Assembly: GCA_039802265.1 (NCBI GenBank)
Contig: JBDRWI010000026.1
Span: 1 to 29,317 of the forward strand
From: a candidate division WOR-3 bacterium
GTDB lineage: Bacteria > Hydrothermota > Tepidihabitantia > SM23-42 > JAOAFX01
Length of the DNA: 29,317 bases
Direction: 5' to 3'
In this document: piece by piece, positions 21,947-29,317 of the stretch
Position numbering within the stretch: position 1 is the first letter of the stretch
Layout of the letters: each line of letters starts with the position of its first letter
Made by a program: the position numbers and the translations under genes
The notes under the pieces: model-generated
The model's database searches: none
What the model was told of the DNA's origin: nothing
Seen by the model: the letters and a program-made list of their open reading frames with translations, nothing else

Positions 21947-22010
21947 TGGGGTGGCAACTTAAATTGCATTTGAGCGAAATTCGTGAAAAGGAGTATGAAT
22001 AATCTTCTGG

Positions 22011-22038
22011 TTGACAGATTCTTTTTATTAGGTAAAAT
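22011..22038 (+). promoter_or_regulatory. sigma70-type promoter of the porV-like gene (apparently leaderless)
   Basis: TTGACA (22011-22016)-N16-TAAAAT (22033-22038); 7 nt to ATG 22046. Confidence 0.75.
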
Positions 22039-22045
22039 CACAAGT

Positions 22046-23065
22046 ATGAAGTTGAGAGCGCTATTGATTTTTATCTGTTTTGTTGGTTCATCCTATTCAG
22101 CCAGAAGACCAGGGGCAACATTTTTATTAATCCCTCCCACTGCCAGGGCAACCGGGATGGCATATGCCTGGACTGCCATTGCCAATGATGCCTCAGCAAA
22201 CTATTACAACGGTGCCGGACTTGGGTTTCAATATCTGCCGAATTTTAGTATAACCTATTTCAAATATCTACCCGGCTTCAAATCTGATATGAAGTATCTC
22301 TATCTTGCTGGTTCTTATCCTCTGATAAACTCTGCCTGGGGGTTTGATTTTATATATTTCACACTGGGTAAAACTCCTGTAATTGATTCTCAAGGGCGTT
22401 TTCTCGGTGAGTATATTATATGGCGTTCCGCAGTGAAACTGAATTATGCCCGAAGGATAGGTAACAATCTATCCCTGGGCTTTGGCGTTAAATATGTGTA
22501 TCAAAAATATGGACTATTTCGGTGGGACTGGTCTCCAAACTATCCCATATATACTGGATGGGACACCGGTGGCACTGGCTCTGCCTTCGGGTTTGATTTT
22601 AATTCTCTGGCGCGGATTTTGTCCAATCTATCCCTCGGTGCCGTCATTCATAATCTTGGTTCTATATCTTATACAGATGATGGTTCAAGCGCTCCCCTAC
22701 CCTGTTTATTAAGACTTGGCATCTGCTATATTCCGATGCAACTTGATAATCTTTCAATTATAATCTCCGCTGAGCTAACCAAAATTCTAACCGGAATGTT
22801 TGTTGACCAGACCAAATCATTTACCGAGAATTTAAAATATGAATTTGTTGAATCGGCTTGGAAGGGGATCGGTGGGGAGATTAATCTCGCCAGAGTTCTT
22901 GCCTTGCGCCTTGGCTATTTTTATGACTCTGAAGGTGCAAGAAAGGGAATAACATACGGTGGTGGCATTAAACTTGAGCGATTAGAGTTTGATATTGGGA
23001 TAGATGAGAAGATCTACGAATTTCCCACTCCAAACCGCAAGGTTTCGCTGACTTATTGTTTTTAA
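22046..23065 (+). CDS. PorV/PorQ family outer-membrane beta-barrel (T9SS shuttle-like)
   Basis: Signal peptide MKLRALLIFICFVGSSYSA; FLLIPPTARATGMA.A..AIANDA.A.YYN.AGL hatch motif; LRLGYFYD; terminal Phe. Start moved from 21983 to 22046. Confidence 0.85.
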   Translation: MKLRALLIFICFVGSSYSARRPGATFLLIPPTARATGMAYAWTAIANDASANYYNGAGLGFQYLPNFSITYFKYLPGFKSDMKYLYLAGSYPLINSAWGFDFIYFTLGKTPVIDSQGRFLGEYIIWRSAVKLNYARRIGNNLSLGFGVKYVYQKYGLFRWDWSPNYPIYTGWDTGGTGSAFGFDFNSLARILSNLSLGAVIHNLGSISYTDDGSSAPLPCLLRLGICYIPMQLDNLSIIISAELTKILTGMFVDQTKSFTENLKYEFVESAWKGIGGEINLARVLALRLGYFYDSEGARKGITYGGGIKLERLEFDIGIDEKIYEFPTPNRKVSLTYCF

Positions 23066-23079
23066 AAAAAGCCAGGATT

Positions 23080-23937
23080 TTACTGAATTATTATCTCTAT
23101 CTTTGAATATTTGGGCAATAAGCCGGGCGTGAACCGGGGTGCAGTCTTGATTGCCTTTTCCGGCAGGACCGTCCTTTTTACAATCTCCTGCATTATTACT
23201 TCGCCCCTTGTCTTTGCCAGTGTCTCATTTTCTGAAACGGAATATACGACAACCTCTTTTTTGAATCGCTCTTTGATAATGTTGGCAATTTCATCAATAT
23301 AGACATTTGCCTCCGGACCAAGGACTGAAGAGTTTTCATTAAAGAGGACACCGGATGAAATGGCAATAACCTTGCTCTGCTGTTCGTCATATACAATTCC
23401 ATTGAATTTATAGGAACGACCGGTAATCCTTGTTGGATTGCCAATGGCATCAAACGCAGTAAAGACATAATTATAGACCTCACCCATATTACACATCTCC
23501 CCGCTATCGGTTCGGCCATCCCACGCGATAGTCGGTGGAGGCAGTCCACGCTGGGAGTATTTTCTGACGACCTCGCCACTGGCATTGGTAATAACCAATT
23601 CCCAGGAGGAGACGGTCTTTTCAAATTTAGGAATGAATAAGGCAATACTGCCGTACATCAGCCTACCGACAAGCGGGACCCTGAGGTATTCGCTATGGAG
23701 GTAGAGGATTGGAGTATTTAAGGCATCAATTGTGTTATATAATTTATCATCAAAGATATATTTCTCCTGAGAGATTACCGAATCCAGTGGGGCAAAGCCA
23801 TTGAGAGCCGGTGATAGATATATCTTGGGTTCAGTTATCTTCATCTTCAATTCACCTTTTATTACCTCTTCACCAATCTCATGTTCACCCTTCTTTGCCT
23901 CTTGGGTAAGTAAGAAAAATATTAAAAATAGATTCAT
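23080..23937 (-). CDS. Exported protein with FlgD-like Ig module and degenerate OmpA-C-like domain
   Basis: Short hydrophobic N-terminus after a GAGGAG RBS; 'WELVI.N.SGEVVR.....P..IAWDGRTDSG...Y.Y...A.DA.GN'; then 'SGVLF..NSSVL.......IDEIA.II'. Last gene of the Ton operon. Confidence 0.55.
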   Translation of the reverse strand: MNLFLIFFLLTQEAKKGEHEIGEEVIKGELKMKITEPKIYLSPALNGFAPLDSVISQEKYIFDDKLYNTIDALNTPILYLHSEYLRVPLVGRLMYGSIALFIPKFEKTVSSWELVITNASGEVVRKYSQRGLPPPTIAWDGRTDSGEMCNMGEVYNYVFTAFDAIGNPTRITGRSYKFNGIVYDEQQSKVIAISSGVLFNENSSVLGPEANVYIDEIANIIKERFKKEVVVYSVSENETLAKTRGEVIMQEIVKRTVLPEKAIKTAPRFTPGLLPKYSKIEIIIQ

Positions 23938-23947
23938 AATCTTCTCC

Positions 23948-24856
23948 TCAGCCAAGGACAAACTTGAAGGTAATAATTCCCCATTGAACTTCCTGAACCA
24001 CATCCTTGGGCAGGGGCGCAAAGAGCCATTTCTTAATACTATTTACCACAGTCTGGTCAAGGTCAGGATAGCCAGAGGAGACCTCTATCCTGACATTCTC
24101 CCGAACACTGCCATCAGGATTTACATCCACCCTTATCTTTACTACACCGCAGATTCCCCTCTGGAGACACCAGGCTGGATACTGGGGGAGGAATTTTTTC
24201 AGAATTTCGCGATTGGCAATTGGACCCGCAAGGGAAATACTTGTTCCCTTTGTCTCTACCTTCAGTTTTTCTTCAACCTTTGCCTCAACCTGTTTGCCAA
24301 TCTGGGAGGTCGGGGTTGAGGGGGGTGGCTTCTTTTCAATTTTTATCGTTGGTGTCTGCGCCTGCCGACCTATACCACCTATCTGTCCGATTCCAACCCC
24401 ACCTTCACCACCTGCTCCGCGCGGTAGATTCTTTGCCAGGGAGATCGGTTTTTCCGCTAAGATTTCATCGGTTGATTTCATTGTGCCATTCTTTACACTG
24501 CCGATTTTTATTACTTCACCCACACCTTCAGTAGGTGCATATCGTTCAAGGTCAATCTTTGCCTGACTTCGGTCAAGTTTTACATTCAAGTCAATTGCGG
24601 GAGTGACAATATCACCACCGCCATAAGTTCCTGAAGAAGGGGCTGGTGTTTCACTGACCTCACCCCATATTGAACCTTTTGATACAACCTTGGCAACCTC
24701 AGGTCTATAAGATTGGTCAAGGAAGGTCACCTCTTTTATATCCTCATAACTTCCTAAGGAGGTAGAGCCACCCTTAGAGAAGAGGAGGAATAAGAGGATA
24801 TGGAAGACAATTGATATTGCAATCCCGAGGTCAAGTCTTTTATCCTTAAACATCAT
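23948..24856 (-). CDS. tonB: Energy transducer TonB family protein
   Basis: N-terminal TM with S-x3-H (SIVFH), Gly/Pro-rich linker, and TonB_C domain 'PQYP......GVV...V.V.PDGSV...SSGYPDLD......KKW.F.P'. Confidence 0.85.
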   Translation of the reverse strand: MMFKDKRLDLGIAISIVFHILLFLLFSKGGSTSLGSYEDIKEVTFLDQSYRPEVAKVVSKGSIWGEVSETPAPSSGTYGGGDIVTPAIDLNVKLDRSQAKIDLERYAPTEGVGEVIKIGSVKNGTMKSTDEILAEKPISLAKNLPRGAGGEGGVGIGQIGGIGRQAQTPTIKIEKKPPPSTPTSQIGKQVEAKVEEKLKVETKGTSISLAGPIANREILKKFLPQYPAWCLQRGICGVVKIRVDVNPDGSVRENVRIEVSSGYPDLDQTVVNSIKKWLFAPLPKDVVQEVQWGIITFKFVLG

Positions 24857-25245
24857 TCACCCTTTGGTTTTTTTGTTGCGCAGGCGATGCGCTTTGCCCC
24901 GGCCCGTTTAATCTTTGCCAGAATCTCCAGAACATCACGATGTAGTACACTTTTATCTGCCCTTATCACAAATAGTTGATAAGGGTCCTGGTTGACCGCC
25001 TCAGAAATGATACTCTCCAGATTTTCCGGTGCAATGGGCTGGTCATTAACAAAGAGTCGATTATCTGCAGTAAATGTAATCGTGAAGTTCTCCTCGGTCT
25101 TTGTCTCAGCGGTATGTGCCTTGGGAACCTCAACCGGGGTATTGGTATGGGTCATTGTCATTGGCGCGAGAACCATCATCATTAAAACGACCATCAAGGC
25201 AACCGCGGCCATTGGTAGAATTTCTACATTCTCCATCCTCTTCAT
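24853..25245 (-). CDS. exbD: ExbD/TolR family protein lacking the conserved TM Asp
   Basis: TM helix then 'VEVPKA', 'LFVND', 'IRADKSV....V..IL..IKRAG..RI'. The TM starts ILPMAAV where the family has xxPLIDV. Confidence 0.85.
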   Translation of the reverse strand: MKRMENVEILPMAAVALMVVLMMMVLAPMTMTHTNTPVEVPKAHTAETKTEENFTITFTADNRLFVNDQPIAPENLESIISEAVNQDPYQLFVIRADKSVLHRDVLEILAKIKRAGAKRIACATKKPKGE

Positions 25246-25655
25246 CTTCTACTCCTTAATAAGGCAAGTTCTCCTGCACCCTTCTGTTTTGCAAGGTCAA
25301 GGATTTGAATGACCCTTTCATAGGTTACTAAAGAATCGGTTGAGACAATTACCCTTCTTTCGAGACTGCGGGCAAGGAGCTGGGGAAGGAGTTCTTCCAA
25401 TCGTTCATAGCTTACCAATTCTTCATTTAATAATATACCGCCATCGTCTAAAAGATGAATATTCACCTTTATATCACTCACCTCAGTCGCACCACCCGTG
25501 GCAACACCAGGTGCATTTACAAATATCCCGGATTCAAAGAAGAGGGGAATTGCAACAATGAAACCGATTACCAAAGATAGTGCTATATCCACCAGGGAAT
25601 TGAGTATCAATCCCTGGGGTTCGGGCCCAAATTTTAAGCGCCTCTTCCTTCTCAT
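25242..25655 (-). CDS. exbD: ExbD/TolR family protein
   Basis: Basic N-terminus, TM with Asp (NSLVDIAL), periplasmic 'ILLNE...D..VTYERVIQILDLAKQ.G'. Confidence 0.88.
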   Translation of the reverse strand: MRRKRRLKFGPEPQGLILNSLVDIALSLVIGFIVAIPLFFESGIFVNAPGVATGGATEVSDIKVNIHLLDDGGILLNEELVSYERLEELLPQLLARSLERRVIVSTDSLVTYERVIQILDLAKQKGAGELALLRSRR

Positions 25656-25656
25656 C

Positions 25657-26364
25657 TTAGAATTTCCAGGATGTATCCTCTGGTGGTGGCGTAGGAGCTG
25701 GCTTCGGTGTCGCTATCGGATCAGGATTTACCGGGGCAGCCTTCTTCCTAAAATTTTCCAGCACCACAATCAGCCTGTCTGTTACTCCATCAAGGCTCAT
25801 TGCCAGTTCATTGCTCTTTTTTGTATAATAGTTGTAGAAGAATAGCGTTGGGATACCGATGAAAAGGCCGAATGCGGTGGTCAGCAGTGCCTCGGCAATA
25901 CCCGCAGAAATCACTGCTGGGCCACCAGAGCCGGTAATGGCAATATTGTGGAATGCCCTTATCAGTCCTGTAACAGTGCCTAATAGTCCCAATAGTGTTG
26001 CGGCATTAGCCAGTGTTCCCATCCCACCAAGATAACGGTCAAATTTTAGCTTCTCTTCAATGATATAACTTGATAAGACCTCATATAGACTATCCGCATC
26101 AAGGTGAGAATTCTGGAGGGCAACCGCAAACAATCCAAAGAGTGGATTTTTTTTCTGATTGGCATAGGCAAGTGCACCATTTAAGCCCTGACTTCTTAAG
26201 ACCTGACTGAATCGCAAAAAGCCAGTCCGTGAATCAAAGTTGTTTCTCACAAAATACAAGAAACGCTCAATTATTAAGGCGAGGGCAATTATTGAACAGA
26301 CAAGTAGAATCACCATCACAATACTACCCTTGAAGATATCAATTAATGGTTGACCAAGTATCAT
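25657..26364 (-). CDS. exbB: MotA/TolQ/ExbB proton channel family protein
   Basis: LLGLLGTVTGLIRAF and GIAEALLTTAFGLFIGIP motifs; AGGAGG RBS. Confidence 0.93.
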   Translation of the reverse strand: MILGQPLIDIFKGSIVMVILLVCSIIALALIIERFLYFVRNNFDSRTGFLRFSQVLRSQGLNGALAYANQKKNPLFGLFAVALQNSHLDADSLYEVLSSYIIEEKLKFDRYLGGMGTLANAATLLGLLGTVTGLIRAFHNIAITGSGGPAVISAGIAEALLTTAFGLFIGIPTLFFYNYYTKKSNELAMSLDGVTDRLIVVLENFRKKAAPVNPDPIATPKPAPTPPPEDTSWKF

Positions 26365-26378
26365 TCTTTAACCTCCTT

Positions 26379-28964
26379 TCATTTAAGATAAATTACTTTT
26401 TCTATCTTCTGATAATTATTGCTCTCTAATTGCACAAAATAGACCCCGGAAGATAAATTCTTGGGCATAAGCAAAAACTCATTTTTACCAATCCTCGCCC
26501 TGCCCAATTCCTCTTTTTGGATTAATCTTCCGGTTATATCATACAATTTGATCGCAATGGGACGGCCATCTGGAGAATTGAAATGAATCCTTAAGAGGTT
26601 CTTTGTCGGGTTTGGGAATATCTTCTCAAATAAGAAAGGACTGGGAATAGGGGTTTCTTCACCCATCGGACCGCCTGCCATTGGTGTTTTGGTTTCCTTA
26701 GGGAATTCATATAACCCAATCTCGCTACAAACAACCCGCTTACCCTTGATTTTTGAAATATCAATAATTATCTCCCCATCAGCATAGGTATTCTCGGGCA
26801 ACCAGACTGAAATCCTCTTTAAATGATTCGGTTGAATAAATGTAGTATCCAATCCAACTCCATCCACAATCAGCGCCTGAATTATCCTGCCGATGCCTCT
26901 CTTTTCCGGTTCGTAGCGTCCATCTTCAGATGGACGGGCATTCTTATCCGTCCAGTTAAAACTGGACGCTACAATTTCTCTGTTTGTGGTTGAAGGTAAA
27001 AGGTTTAAGGTGTTAAAGTTTGCGCGTCCTGTTAAATTGTCATGCTGAACTTGTTTCAGCATCTCATCTGTGCGATGAATCGCACCGCTACAATTTTGCG
27101 TTTCACGGTTCACGGTAGACGGTTCACGACTTGTAGGAGCAGGGACTTCAGTCCCGTTATCCCCTGATAACCCTTCATATCCCTTAATAACCCCTGATTC
27201 CCCTTTTGCCTCTAATTGCCTCAAATTGCCCCCAATTGCCTTAATCTGCCCCAAATTGCCCTTGCTCACCTGATTCTCAAAATAATACGCCAAGTCCAGC
27301 CGATAAATCTTATCCGCGCTCAAACCCGTAAACTTATATCTCAAATTCTCATACCCCCAATCGGTAGTCTGATATGGCAAATCCCCAAATATCCAATAAC
27401 CATCCCTTTTTAGACAATACTGAGATTGAGTTGGCTTACCCAAATCGGCATAGAATCCTGGTACCGCAGGAACGGTGATTTTCTCAAATTCAATCCGATA
27501 AGGGGCTGAATCACCTTCAGTCCAGGCAATATATAAGCAGGTATCATTTAAATCCTGACGGAATAAGGCTGTTGGATGGGCAGAGAGCTCCGGAGTCACT
27601 TTTACGGTTTCTGGAGCACCCCAGGTCGCACCGTTAAATCTTGAATAGTAAATATCCCCGTTTGCCCAGATTGTATACCAGGCCGCAACATTTACCGGCT
27701 CACCAAACCGGTTAAAAGGCAGTGGCTGATAAACAGTCTTGATGCTATCCCAGCCCAGAGCTGTTTTACTACGACAGGAGATAGAATGGATATAGGTTGT
27801 ATCAGGATACCGATTGTCCCAGACCAAATGTAATCTATCTCCAAAAGACTCAATATCAGGATAATAAGAGCCATCAAAGGTAAGGGTATCAGTTTTTGGT
27901 TTTTCTGACCAGACCCTATTCTGCCGATAACGGTATCTAATCCTTGGTGCACCGGGCGCAGTCTCATAGGCGATATGAATCACACCCTGATTATCTATGG
28001 TCAAACTTGGACAGGGACTGGGCGATTCCTCATAAACCCAGATTGTATCTAATTGTATGTAGTTAAAAATAGGGATAGAATCAAGAGCGTGAAAGTTGCC
28101 ATACCAGACTGCAAAACGATGAGGATAGTTTTTACCCATCGGTGACATCCAGGTCACATGGATGGTATCCAATGAATCTATACCTGCTGAAGGCGCCGGG
28201 ATTGCATATAGGGGAATACCAACCGAGACTGAGTCAATAGACATAAGAAGTGCAGGTGTAGTCCAGTGGTTATTGATGAATTTCGTAAAATACAACTGGG
28301 CACTACCAAATCCACCGGGACCTACCCATCGTCCAAATAGACAACAAGGATTATGCTGTGAATCCAAGACCAATGTTGGATATTTGCCGAAGTCAATGGC
28401 GGTCCCTTCCCAGGTAAAGCCTTCATTATTGGTTGAAATAAACTTTATTCCTTCTTCAGTAGTGTATGCCAAAAAGATTTCTCCAGTAATTGGGTTACGA
28501 ACAATCCTTGTGCCATTGTTATATGCCGTAGCAAAGGGTGAATTTGAAACACAGGGGAGCGTCACTCTGCTACTATCAGAGAAACCAGATTCATTCCCCA
28601 GACTATCAAAACTGGTCAATTTATATTCATAAGTATACCCAAATTGGACCGTAGTATCAAGATATGTAGTATCTGTAGGTTCGCCAATTACTGTCCACGG
28701 ACTCCATTGTAAAACAGTTGATTTTTCTTTTCTATAAACCCGATAACCCTGTAGGTCGGGCTCGGTATTCTTTGCCCAATATAATCTGACATCATTATCT
28801 TCCAGGAAAATTTTTAATCCAGTCGGCGCTGCCGGAATGCTATCCCTAATGCGGTGGTGAAGTAATATTTGATTCATAGCAAATTGATGGTCATAGTCAA
28901 AGGCATTCCAGCCACTTCTAAAGTGAAAAATTGTCCAGCAATTTGTTGGCTCGCCTGCGGGGGG
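26379..28964 (-). CDS. C-terminal part of a large T9SS-cargo protein (Fn3, beta-propeller-like region, repeat-derived insert, T9SS C-terminal sorting domain); in a different frame from its N-terminal part
   Basis: Frame is open from 28964. Fn3 'PAAPTGL...LYW..NTEPDLQGYRVYR...YLD...Y.Y..TSFD..GNES..S'. CTD 'FPNPT...I.LYDITGRLI...LSSGVYFV.L......KVI'. No signal peptide at the track ATG (28877). Confidence 0.8.
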   Translation of the reverse strand, partial: PPAGEPTNCWTIFHFRSGWNAFDYDHQFAMNQILLHHRIRDSIPAAPTGLKIFLEDNDVRLYWAKNTEPDLQGYRVYRKEKSTVLQWSPWTVIGEPTDTTYLDTTVQFGYTYEYKLTSFDSLGNESGFSDSSRVTLPCVSNSPFATAYNNGTRIVRNPITGEIFLAYTTEEGIKFISTNNEGFTWEGTAIDFGKYPTLVLDSQHNPCCLFGRWVGPGGFGSAQLYFTKFINNHWTTPALLMSIDSVSVGIPLYAIPAPSAGIDSLDTIHVTWMSPMGKNYPHRFAVWYGNFHALDSIPIFNYIQLDTIWVYEESPSPCPSLTIDNQGVIHIAYETAPGAPRIRYRYRQNRVWSEKPKTDTLTFDGSYYPDIESFGDRLHLVWDNRYPDTTYIHSISCRSKTALGWDSIKTVYQPLPFNRFGEPVNVAAWYTIWANGDIYYSRFNGATWGAPETVKVTPELSAHPTALFRQDLNDTCLYIAWTEGDSAPYRIEFEKITVPAVPGFYADLGKPTQSQYCLKRDGYWIFGDLPYQTTDWGYENLRYKFTGLSADKIYRLDLAYYFENQVSKGNLGQIKAIGGNLRQLEAKGESGVIKGYEGLSGDNGTEVPAPTSREPSTVNRETQNCSGAIHRTDEMLKQVQHDNLTGRANFNTLNLLPSTTNREIVASSFNWTDKNARPSEDGRYEPEKRGIGRIIQALIVDGVGLDTTFIQPNHLKRISVWLPENTYADGEIIIDISKIKGKRVVCSEIGLYEFPKETKTPMAGGPMGEETPIPSPFLFEKIFPNPTKNLLRIHFNSPDGRPIAIKLYDITGRLIQKEELGRARIGKNEFLLMPKNLSSGVYFVQLESNNYQKIEKVIYLK
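26913..26972. repeat. Inverted pair of GTAG-type REP hairpins (REPIN-like) inside CDS
   Basis: GTAG-CGTCCATCT-tc-AGATGGACG (26913-26936) and, on the minus strand, GTAG-CGTCCAGTT-tt-AACTGGACG (26949-26972). Confidence 0.8.
27038..27065 (+). repeat. TGTC/CGTC-type REP-like palindrome inside CDS
   Basis: TGTC-ATGCTGAA-cttgt-TTCAGCAT-CTC; read as EMLKQVQHD on the coding strand. Confidence 0.75.
27070..27155. repeat. Two further GTAG-type REP hairpins separated by a 7-mer tandem repeat
   Basis: Minus strand GTAG-cg-GTGCGAT-tc-ATCGCAC (27070-27091); GTTTCAC GGTTCAC GGTAGAC GGTTCAC (27100-27127); plus strand GTAG-gagca-GGGACT-tc-AGTCCC (27133-27155). Confidence 0.75.
27161..27260 (+). repeat. Two adjacent degenerate 10-mer tandem repeats inside CDS
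   Basis: CCCCTGATAA CCCTTCATAT CCCTTAATAA CCCCTGATTC (27161-27200), then TCTAATTGCC TCAAATTGCC CCCAATTGCC TTAATCTGCC CCAAATTGCC (27211-27260). Confidence 0.85.
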
Positions 28965-29317
28965 TCATAATGGTCAAATACATCCCAGATTGGGTCAAAG
29001 CCCATTGTAAGGGTATCATAAAGCCCGGTATCGGGAAACCAAACGCCATAAAGAGAATCAGGGTAAGAATGGTAAGGGATTTCATCATAAGCATCATAAA
29101 TGTCCCACAAAGCACCAGCAACAGAGCCCTCGCACCAGGGGCCACCATCAAAAAATTCAGGAATAGTTATTGAATTATCCCAAGGATTCTCAAGATTCCA
29201 ATAATTTAGACTTCCCCCATTTATTCCATGATGTGTGCTAATAATGAGCGAGTCTGCACCTGTCCCAACTCTTGCTCTTCCAGAAAAAAAGTGAGCCCAA
29301 CCTTCACCATAGCCGAT
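28874..29317 (-). CDS. Zinc metalloprotease (gluzincin-like) domain, 5'-truncated; N-terminal part of the frameshifted T9SS-cargo gene
   Basis: Frame is open to the window edge: IGYGEGWAHFFS...WNLENPW...EGSVAGALWDIYD...D.L..GFDPIWDVF. EGWAxFF is the third-ligand helix that follows HExxH; the HExxH itself is not in the window. Confidence 0.65.
   Translation of the reverse strand: MGYGEGWAHFFSGRARVGTGADSLIISTHHGINGGSLNYWNLENPWDNSITIPEFFDGGPWCEGSVAGALWDIYDAYDEIPYHSYPDSLYGVWFPDTGLYDTLTMGFDPIWDVFDHYDPPQASQQIAGQFFTLEVAGMPLTMTINLL

Follow-up and report, generated by a model that had tools for sequence, protein, structure and literature searches.

The host gene and its domains

The window, i.e. the whole stretch of 29,317 nucleotides analyzed here, harbors an 832-codon open reading frame (ORF; 26379-28877, minus strand) that encodes Fn3-like, propeller-like, jelly-roll and sorting domains. 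A tblastn search with an intact homolog, L301, revealed a break in the frame of this gene at a homopolymer of six bases (28959-28964, minus strand), two bases longer than in L301, apparently a frameshift in the assembly. The 5′ part of the gene (28961-29317, minus strand; 66% identity to residues 575-691 of L301) runs off the contig end. An initial sequence-only reading had assigned the ORF to T9SS cargo; the type A sorting domain (26391-26621, minus strand; PF18962 at 49.7 bits and TIGR04183 at 41.7 bits, each above its cut-off), which carries no repeats in this gene, bears this out, but the ORF covers only the 3′ portion of a cargo gene of about 1,475 amino acids that is frameshifted in the assembly. 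The genome encodes the T9SS components SprA and PorV, both over cut-off, while GldM/PorM was not found in its 89% complete assembly. The host protein is likely secreted.

The jelly-roll, for which structure prediction suggests a sugar-binding, CBM/malectin-like domain, is encoded in two halves: a first half with a predicted CBM35/malectin-like fold (27276-27458, minus strand) and a second half (26703-26897, minus strand). The model of the insert-bearing domain itself had a mean pLDDT of 52.8 and gave uninformative Foldseek matches, and the fold was taken from the model of an empty paralog. Between the two halves lies an insert of 378 nt, or 126 codons (26898-27275, minus strand), predicted to split the domain at one strand-strand loop and to be disordered (modelled without structure, pLDDT under 50). 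The earlier proposal of a disordered insert within one beta-sandwich thus agrees with the predicted structures.

Composition of the insert

Nine repeat units belonging to about seven families tile the insert. Every block listed in the sequence-only reading stands at its position, and the description as an in-frame mosaic of short repeats laid end to end holds, with two corrections: its "about eight blocks" are nine units, both halves of the first pair belonging to one family, and its bounds (26913..27260, about 116 codons) were too narrow. Block A (26913-26972, no strand assigned) is an inverted pair of GTAG-tagged REPs, A1 and A2 (halves 26913-26937 and 26948-26972). It is followed by a 7-mer run (B, 26988-27021, plus strand), a TGTC-tagged hairpin (C, 27038-27065, plus strand), a GTAG REP present in several phyla (D, 27070-27091, minus strand), another 7-mer run (E, 27102-27128, minus strand), a GTAG-tagged hairpin with its tag 5 nt from the stem (F, 27133-27155, plus strand) and two 10-mer runs (G, 27158-27204, and H, 27206-27260, both minus strand). 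Blocks A, D and F display the REP layout, in which a GTAG tag precedes a short stem-loop. Tandem Repeats Finder delimits B and E as 7-mer arrays and G and H as 10/20-mer arrays at these same coordinates, and five of its nine rows for the whole window lie in the insert.

Among the coding 400-nt windows of the genome, based on our own gene calls, the insert ranks first for repeat elements, and its predicted folding beats that of all 100 shuffled versions (z -4.4). An Rfam scan of 26300-27800 gave no match at E-values up to 1. The gene frame is free of stops across the insert, versus 8, 14, 8, 4 and 7 stops in the five other frames, and all nine blocks sit in their stop-free phase (chance of about 8e-4 under random phases). 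The encoded peptide is hydrophilic, with E, G, S, N, D, K and R accounting for about 59% of residues. As with Rickettsia palindromic elements, palindromes lie in frame within a protein gene, and the earlier view that these are DNA-level rather than protein-level repeats is supported.

Distribution of the repeat families

Copies were counted at 20 nt or more, a threshold at which 29 of 300 controls had one copy and none had three. Six of the nine blocks have at least three other copies in their own genome, nearly all intergenic. The suggestion of the sequence-only reading that the loop gathers many repeat families is supported. All other own-genome copies of A2 (three), D (six) and F (three to four) are intergenic; for G and A1, no other copy of this length was found in the assembly. 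The block A pattern occurs in 14/48 genomes and that of D in 15/48 (reversed controls, 0), four of 68 assessable D copies lie in long ORFs, and F has six matches in 4/120 genomes. TGTC hairpins show a high shuffled background and were therefore excluded from enrichment counts. GTAG hairpins are at chance level in non-cargo genes (28 versus 31 expected). Runs of 7-mers occur in 30/191 sorting-domain genes versus 3/1,613 other genes, with a density of 13 per 100 kb in cargo genes versus 6 per 100 kb in intergenic DNA. Mosaics of multiple families are also present between genes.

Enzyme genes beside the repeats

The identification of the GTAG blocks as REPs holds for two of the three families, which have RAYT neighbors in relatives; for F, no partner was found among 30 Y1 loci. 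The block A family flanks a RAYT gene in relatives, in G002:C41 and G010:C18, with L143 (NF047646, 98.5 bits for a cut-off of 80) and L147 as its RAYT loci. In L284, tandem copies of D immediately precede a RAYT-like gene that scores 25 bits and is cut by the locus end. A RAYT gene is found within 1.2 kb of two of 117 D loci and adjoins just one, which counts against the explanation that we favor below. The 89% complete assembly revealed no cognate RAYT for A, D or F, and its three Y1 genes are without these REPs. When the blocks were compared by BLAST with the 30 Y1 loci, nothing matched, F included; the cognates of A and D came from pattern searches.

Most of the blocks without GTAG tags go with two other gene families, a point that the sequence-only reading had overlooked. 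Hairpins of the block C family lie on both sides of a gene on contig C19 for a single-domain GIY-YIG protein of 99 amino acids (PF01541, 68 bits); neither NCBIfam nor PDB searches yielded a family name for it. The short runs go with four-helix-bundle genes (PF05635/TIGR02436): the E family flanks one such gene (C14:2466-2780) on both sides, inverted, and the H family flanks another (C14:1430-1741) in inverted orientation. Runs similar to G, judged by eye, flank two more (C14:3367-3666 and L344), also inverted, and a short run loosely matching B lies behind a fifth (C23:31926-32249). Overall, a 7/8/10-mer run lies in at least one flank of 22/30 four-helix-bundle loci versus 24/249 control genes, and both sides carry runs in 12/30 versus 2/249. 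GxxExxY (PF13366) was not found in the genome. Remnants of DUF559 are flanked by another palindrome family, which is absent from the host insert but occurs in relatives' loops.

The loop reads as a catalog of repeat families pointing to their enzymes, and these neighborhoods suggest mobilization of the repeats by RAYT, Ssn-like nucleases and four-helix-bundle proteins. The pairing of four-helix-bundle genes with inverted 7-10-mer repeats is apparently undescribed as a system, no account of it having been found in the open-access main texts searched; it may represent a further sequence-specific system of mobile DNA alongside RAYT and Ssn.

Turnover of the loop in homologs

The loop is empty in nine paralogs from the same genome, no long insert was found in 23 further proteins, and most paralogs of the jelly-roll domain lack a mosaic, the empty site being ancestral. 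All 23 insert-bearing rows form one clade (support 100/99), in which every member keeps at least 30 insert residues. These counts leave aside L022, whose mosaic is deleted, the empty-type L016 and L026, loci without a second-half match, and G008:C53 and four control loci at contig edges; the tree also omits L021 and L295, and kin are non-independent in every count. Genes can hold up to three mosaic loops besides the sorting domain.

In the 25 loci with both half-domains, inserts span 90-378 nt and differ in block sets and order, yet their length is a multiple of three in 24/25 and they are stop-free in 23/25. Over eight pairs, changes by codon position amount to 35/39/46 in the inserts versus 119/72/237 in the flanks, and synonymous to non-synonymous changes to 30:90 versus 238:190 (p 2e-9), so that the codon positions of the insert carry neither a purifying nor a diversifying signal. 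Together, the maintained frame and the neutral-looking substitutions argue that selection holds the frame and not the peptide. Inserts were mapped against the nine host-insert blocks only, other families being read by eye and uncounted; on this basis, 8/24 match none of the nine, and the opening of the loop may therefore predate the arrival of the repeats. Steps of gain, copying and loss are visible in these loops, where selfish non-coding repeats, filtered for frame alone, have clearly given rise in nature to 30-126 residues of novel protein sequence.

Signs of recombination through the mosaics

Strings of several blocks together with their spacers recur intact in other loops and genes. An Ig-domain loop and a jelly-roll loop about 2 kb apart share 260/305 identical nt in G001:C9 and 146/161 in L297, each loop being the other's best match. 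Between the host insert and that of G009:C51, from another genus, 15/235 mosaic sites differ versus 36/134 flanking third positions, and identity between the two genes drops to about 60% in the sorting domain, a pattern read as patch exchange.

Among the 24 loci with a second half-domain, five have lost the first half with a break in the mosaic; two of these deletions start from another mosaic loop, and only two of the five are repeat-to-repeat. None of 53 empty-type loci shows such a loss, a control biased by its E-value cut-off of 1e-12, which disfavors half domains; at one empty-type locus, a 30-residue deletion begins at the jelly-roll loop. The deletions leave half a jelly-roll, and 3/5 products are frameshifted or gene fragments. 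Independent contigs tile the junctions of an in-frame loop-to-loop deletion in C62, and 2/4 runs show another in-frame skip from one loop to the next. The near-identical strings in distant loops (two cases) and the five deletions ending in a mosaic point to ectopic recombination, as the earlier idea of a recombination hub had anticipated. By giving far-apart loops of modular secreted proteins a shared homology, the mosaics would open a route to domain deletion and swapping in bacteria, without introns.

Comparison with known systems

Rickettsia palindromic elements are selfish palindromes translated in frame, a single long family being scattered over many conserved genes, whereas the host insert stacks many short families in one loop. 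In the mosaic intergenic regions of Neisseria, proposed as recombination substrates, different repeat families are interleaved near surface-protein genes; these regions are intergenic, much longer and free of any reading-frame filter.

Intragenic REPs are already known, including clusters of 43-82 codons. According to Di Nocera, De Gregorio and Rocco (2013; PMC3733652), GTAG- and CGTC-tagged REPs are read in frame, chiefly in DNA repair genes and further cytoplasmic ones; a dimer contributes 20-30 residues and a cluster 43-82. Their proposal is that insertion into loops is neutral, and they describe most REPs as unassociated with other repeats. The host insert shares with these the tagged hairpins read in frame within genes. 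In contrast to the REPs alone of that account, it comprises some seven families, linked to three kinds of protein unrelated to one another, spans 126 residues, lies in a secreted-type protein and is copied between loops. The open-access main texts searched gave no matching description of a mosaic of many families that lies in a mature domain and is copied from loop to loop, though the table of intragenic REPs in PMC3733652 might include mixed clusters.

Block A alone resembles a BIME or REPIN, as an inverted REP pair whose family flanks RAYT; BIMEs, as presented in PMC3333891, are intergenic mosaics and belong to one REP system, whereas the host mosaic is coding and multi-system. Block C, with its 5′ tag, hairpin and 3′ tail and its position on both sides of a single-domain GIY-YIG gene, recalls the Ssn nucleases and their NTS/SRM sequences (Chenal et al. 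2025, PMC11893778). By eye, its tag and tail fit the degenerate SRM pattern published there, while stem positions deviate. The same study reports that NTS clusters adjoin variable surface-protein genes and that NTS are rarely found within genes (2%).

Origin of the mosaic

The insert is probably a patchwork of repeats in a tolerant loop, spread by their own enzymes and then copied and lost by ectopic recombination. The jelly-roll loop likely tolerates any stop-free in-frame filler, and such tolerance would allow repeats to accumulate and turn over there. The repeats would first have been spread by their own small enzymes, and multi-block strings later copied between loops and genes by ectopic recombination, both steps being likely; gene conversion together with repeat- or hairpin-promoted deletion may generate the patterns seen. 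For the host the effect would be close to neutral, any loss or swapping of domains being incidental, and the blocks are likely tolerated passengers that double as recombination joints. Against this explanation stand the heptamer excess in cargo genes, for which plain tolerance is insufficient without copying or targeting, the lack of an enzyme partner for F among the Y1 loci and the loose matching of G and B to four-helix-bundle flanks.

It is unlikely that, in this lineage, the repeats of RAYT, Ssn-like GIY-YIG and four-helix-bundle systems have been co-opted as translated intron-like joints shuffling domains among about 190 secreted proteins. That mosaics are a selected device, kept by the lineage in loops of its many secreted proteins as universal joints through which domains are removed, exchanged or grafted in the manner of translated introns, is decidedly unlikely: the concentration of 7-mer runs in cargo genes, the genes with up to three mosaic loops plus a sorting domain and the in-frame loop-to-loop events would fit, but the products are half jelly-rolls, mostly frameshifted or fragmentary, mosaics of several families are also intergenic, jelly-roll paralogs mostly lack them, no dedicated recombinase was linked to the locus, and the host gene is itself frameshifted in the assembly.

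Quite improbable, too, is an enzymatic landing pad in which blocks were inserted singly by RAYT, Ssn-like and four-helix-bundle systems favoring hairpin or repeat DNA. Enzyme genes of the families, F aside, occur elsewhere, block order is variable, and E. coli TnpA-REP, which recombines BIME strands in vitro (Ton-Hoang et al. 2012, PMC3333891), cleaves and joins them even away from the REP; intact multi-block strings with spacers in different loops and genes are nevertheless unlike single insertions, and copying of such strings from other loops accounts for part of the mosaic.

The sequence-only reading had also proposed a functional hypervariable linker ahead of the sorting domain, which finds no support: the insert lies inside a domain and is neutral at the amino-acid level. 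A disordered surface loop shielding or tuning a carbohydrate-binding domain would account for the hydrophilic composition, the frame kept in 24/25 loci and the 30 or more residues retained throughout the clade, but it is very unlikely given the substitution pattern, the four-fold length variation, the same peptides in unrelated loops and the common empty paralogs.

Finally, that the insert is an assembly chimera of collapsed repeats, as feared earlier, is barely credible and largely refuted: the genome is a 110-contig assembly and none of the contigs from the four runs covers the insert in full, but the blocks are shorter than 60 nt, the frame is open, six blocks occur in the same order in another genus, and overlapping independent contigs about 5% diverged from the window bridge the block junctions (26853-27061, 26700-27097, 27072-27201, 27087-27242 and 27206-27292).

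A repeat mosaic within a predicted jelly-roll loop

The insert spans 378 nt (126 codons; 26898-27275) of the open reading frame 26379-28877 on the reverse strand. Every repeat listed by the sequence-only reading was recovered in place, namely, in gene direction, two 10-mer runs (block H, 27211-27260, then G, 27161-27200), a GTAG hairpin (F, 27133-27155), a 7-mer run (E, 27100-27127), a second GTAG hairpin (D, 27070-27091), a TGTC hairpin (C, 27038-27065), another 7-mer run (B, 26988-27015) and an inverted GTAG pair (A2/A1, 26913-26972). The predicted folding of this stretch beats 100 of 100 shuffled versions, generic detectors place the insert at the top of the genome's coding 400-nt windows for repeats, and all nine blocks lie in stop-free phases (probability about 8e-4).

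The frame ends C-terminally in a T9SS type A sorting domain and is an incomplete gene: compared with the intact 1,475-aa homologue L301, two extra bases in the six-base homopolymer 28959-28964 split a large cargo gene (one ending in such a domain) into ORFs 28874-29317 and 26379-28877, and its 5' part runs off the contig. The split may be a pseudogene lesion, a slippage switch or an assembly error. SprA and PorV were detected in the genome and GldM was not, in an assembly of 110 contigs (the window being contig C26) that is 89% complete. Directly downstream of the cargo gene (21983-26364), a PorV-like gene adjoins a TonB/ExbBD-like cluster and a FlgD-Ig/OmpA-like gene.

The same domain lacks the insert in nine paralogues of this genome and in 23 further proteins of the homologue search set. 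An empty paralogue was modelled as a beta-sandwich (mean pLDDT 80.7) matching malectin-like and CBM35/CBM22 jelly-rolls (Z 11-13, rmsd 2.6-4.2 over about 120 residues), malectin being the lead of the structure-atlas search. In this model the insertion point falls in the turn joining strand 63-70 to strand 78-84, and the insert has pLDDT under 50 in the model of the insert-bearing domain; it is thus predicted to form an intradomain loop. The models agree with the suggestion of a disordered loop splitting one beta-sandwich, and place the insert within the jelly-roll; they do not support a linker ahead of the sorting domain, one of the possibilities that this reading had named.

Probable exchange and deletion between loops

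The explanation that we consider probable is that a tolerant loop would gather repeats, likely spread by their own enzymes, that versions in frame and without stops would persist, that shared strings would let loops convert each other, and that the DNA between two loops with common strings would occasionally be deleted. On contig C9 of the related genome G001 and at locus L297, the multi-block string of the jelly-roll loop is nearly repeated in an Ig-domain loop lying about 2 kb upstream (260/305 and 146/161 nt, respectively), the gene-mate being in each case the closest match, above any other insert; the self-comparison covered five loci, and such pairs were absent from three. The window and a contig from another genus (G009:C51) have six blocks in common, identically ordered, and differ there at 15 of 235 nt; outside the mosaic 36 of 134 flanking third positions differ and the sorting domains are about 60% identical.

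The first half-domain is lost at 5 of the 24 loci having the second half, with the break within the mosaic. On contig C62 of the window's genome and at L294, the Ig-loop mosaic is joined to this one, dropping about 440-450 residues; the other three loci have a non-repeat left end or lack the upstream gene. No such break occurred among 53 empty-type loci, in a control search that disfavours half domains. The C62 junctions are covered by overlapping public contigs that give no long-range phase; public contigs also reveal a further in-frame skip between two loops in two of four runs and a G009-type allele (A and B replaced) alongside the window type in three, all four runs coming from one study that may include the source sample. 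Such exchanges could also be ascribed to a shuffling device maintained by selection, which we judge unlikely; the joint reading, repeats co-opted as shuffling joints plus a new enzyme-repeat system, is likewise unlikely.

Earlier publications describe REP dimers and clusters of up to 82 residues within genes (PMC3733652), BIMEs (PMC3333891) and, between genes of Neisseria, interleaved mosaics of repeats. In open-access main texts, neither a coding-loop mosaic drawn from several repeat systems nor copying from one loop to another was found described.

Repeat families and their candidate enzymes

Elsewhere in the genome, BLAST gave 31 locations for the blocks; 27 lie between genes and four in other cargo genes, with no match in non-cargo genes. 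Six of nine blocks have at least three other copies of at least 20 nt, a number reached by none of 300 randomly drawn gene pieces; G has no further copy of that length, and the other match of A1 is 16 nt long. An intergenic multi-family mosaic with block E recurs at four places (G000:C4:52815-53251, C4:56355, C16:19415 and C88:1043), directly behind promoter-like sequence at the three examined in full.

Using our own gene caller and sorting-domain profile (191 of 1,804 called genes), we counted 49 heptamer runs in 30 of the 191 sorting-domain genes, 48 of them within the sorting domain, 4 in 3 of the 1,613 other genes and 21 between genes. GTAG hairpins, observed versus expected, numbered 22 versus 7 in cargo genes, 28 versus 31 in other genes and 49 versus 5.5 in intergenic regions. 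Multi-family mosaics also occur between genes. Taken together, the loop represents the extreme of a genome-wide habit and is unusual in that its mosaic belongs to the mature protein.

We infer the enzymatic steps from gene neighbourhood and, by analogy, from biochemistry published for other systems (PMC3333891). Block A copies flank a RAYT gene in two relatives (L143:1456-2322 and L147:1387-2349). These belong to two genera, and the gene occupies the same site in both, with a heterodisulfide-reductase-like gene on each side; the corresponding gap of L134 contains REPs only, and the REPs of L143 share the reading frame of the transposase ORF. Within the order, 15 of 48 genomes contain block D, which also occurs in several further phyla; a RAYT is present at 2 of 117 loci, in one case directly behind tandem copies. 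For block F, with 6 matches in 4 of 120 genomes, no enzyme partner was found, and the Y1 genes of the window's genome lack blocks A, D and F. Block C copies lie on both sides of a 99-aa GIY-YIG gene, a layout shared with the Ssn nucleases, whose SRM hairpins are already published (PMC11893778). Two further Y1 transposase sequences were observed, one fused in frame to jelly-roll, mosaic and sorting domain in the protein P0009 (a rearrangement or a chimeric contig), the other a domain inside a 1,148-codon open frame (L074, G055:C89:1278-1574).

Families of blocks E and H flank four-helix-bundle genes in inverted orientation, with a looser match for G and B. Among 30 loci fetched of 82 matches (L333-L362), 22 had a flanking run and 12 had runs on both sides, versus 24 and 2 of 249 control genes, respectively; no description of this pairing was found in open-access main texts. 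The membrane-protein operon at G000:C14:1200-3900 (L305) has three four-helix-bundle genes placed in gaps between consecutive genes, and around each of the three lies a separate inverted family of 7- or 10-mers. Stacking of the blocks in the loop by enzyme targeting is improbable.

Turnover of the loop

Both half-domains were present at 25 loci from related genomes and metagenomes, with inserts of 90-378 nt. The loop is empty in paralogues, and block sets and orders vary: 16 of 24 mapped inserts share window blocks in differing subsets and order, and eight match none. Frame was kept with one exception (24 of 25 are multiples of three, 23 also stop-free). Insert-bearing domains form a single clade, and thus the loop opened once, with turnover afterwards.

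In eight chosen pairs, substitutions by codon position were 35/39/46 in inserts (30 synonymous, 90 non-synonymous) and 119/72/237 in flanks (238 and 190), the patterns differing at p 2e-9. In these sequences, selection acts on frame and the absence of stops rather than on the peptide sequence; a functional variable loop is very unlikely. At L028 (G011:C8) and G011:C20:3530-3979, an empty-type jelly-roll appears, from its peptide, to carry an insert resembling block F in another of its loops.

Support from public contigs

That the insert is a chimera of collapsed repeats, a possibility raised earlier, is extremely unlikely, since independent overlapping public contigs, which differ from the window by about 5%, cross all of the block junctions, although no single one covers the full insert. 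Close homologues of the host protein carry the label candidate division WOR-3, and the public read sets that match the window best are hot-spring metagenomes.
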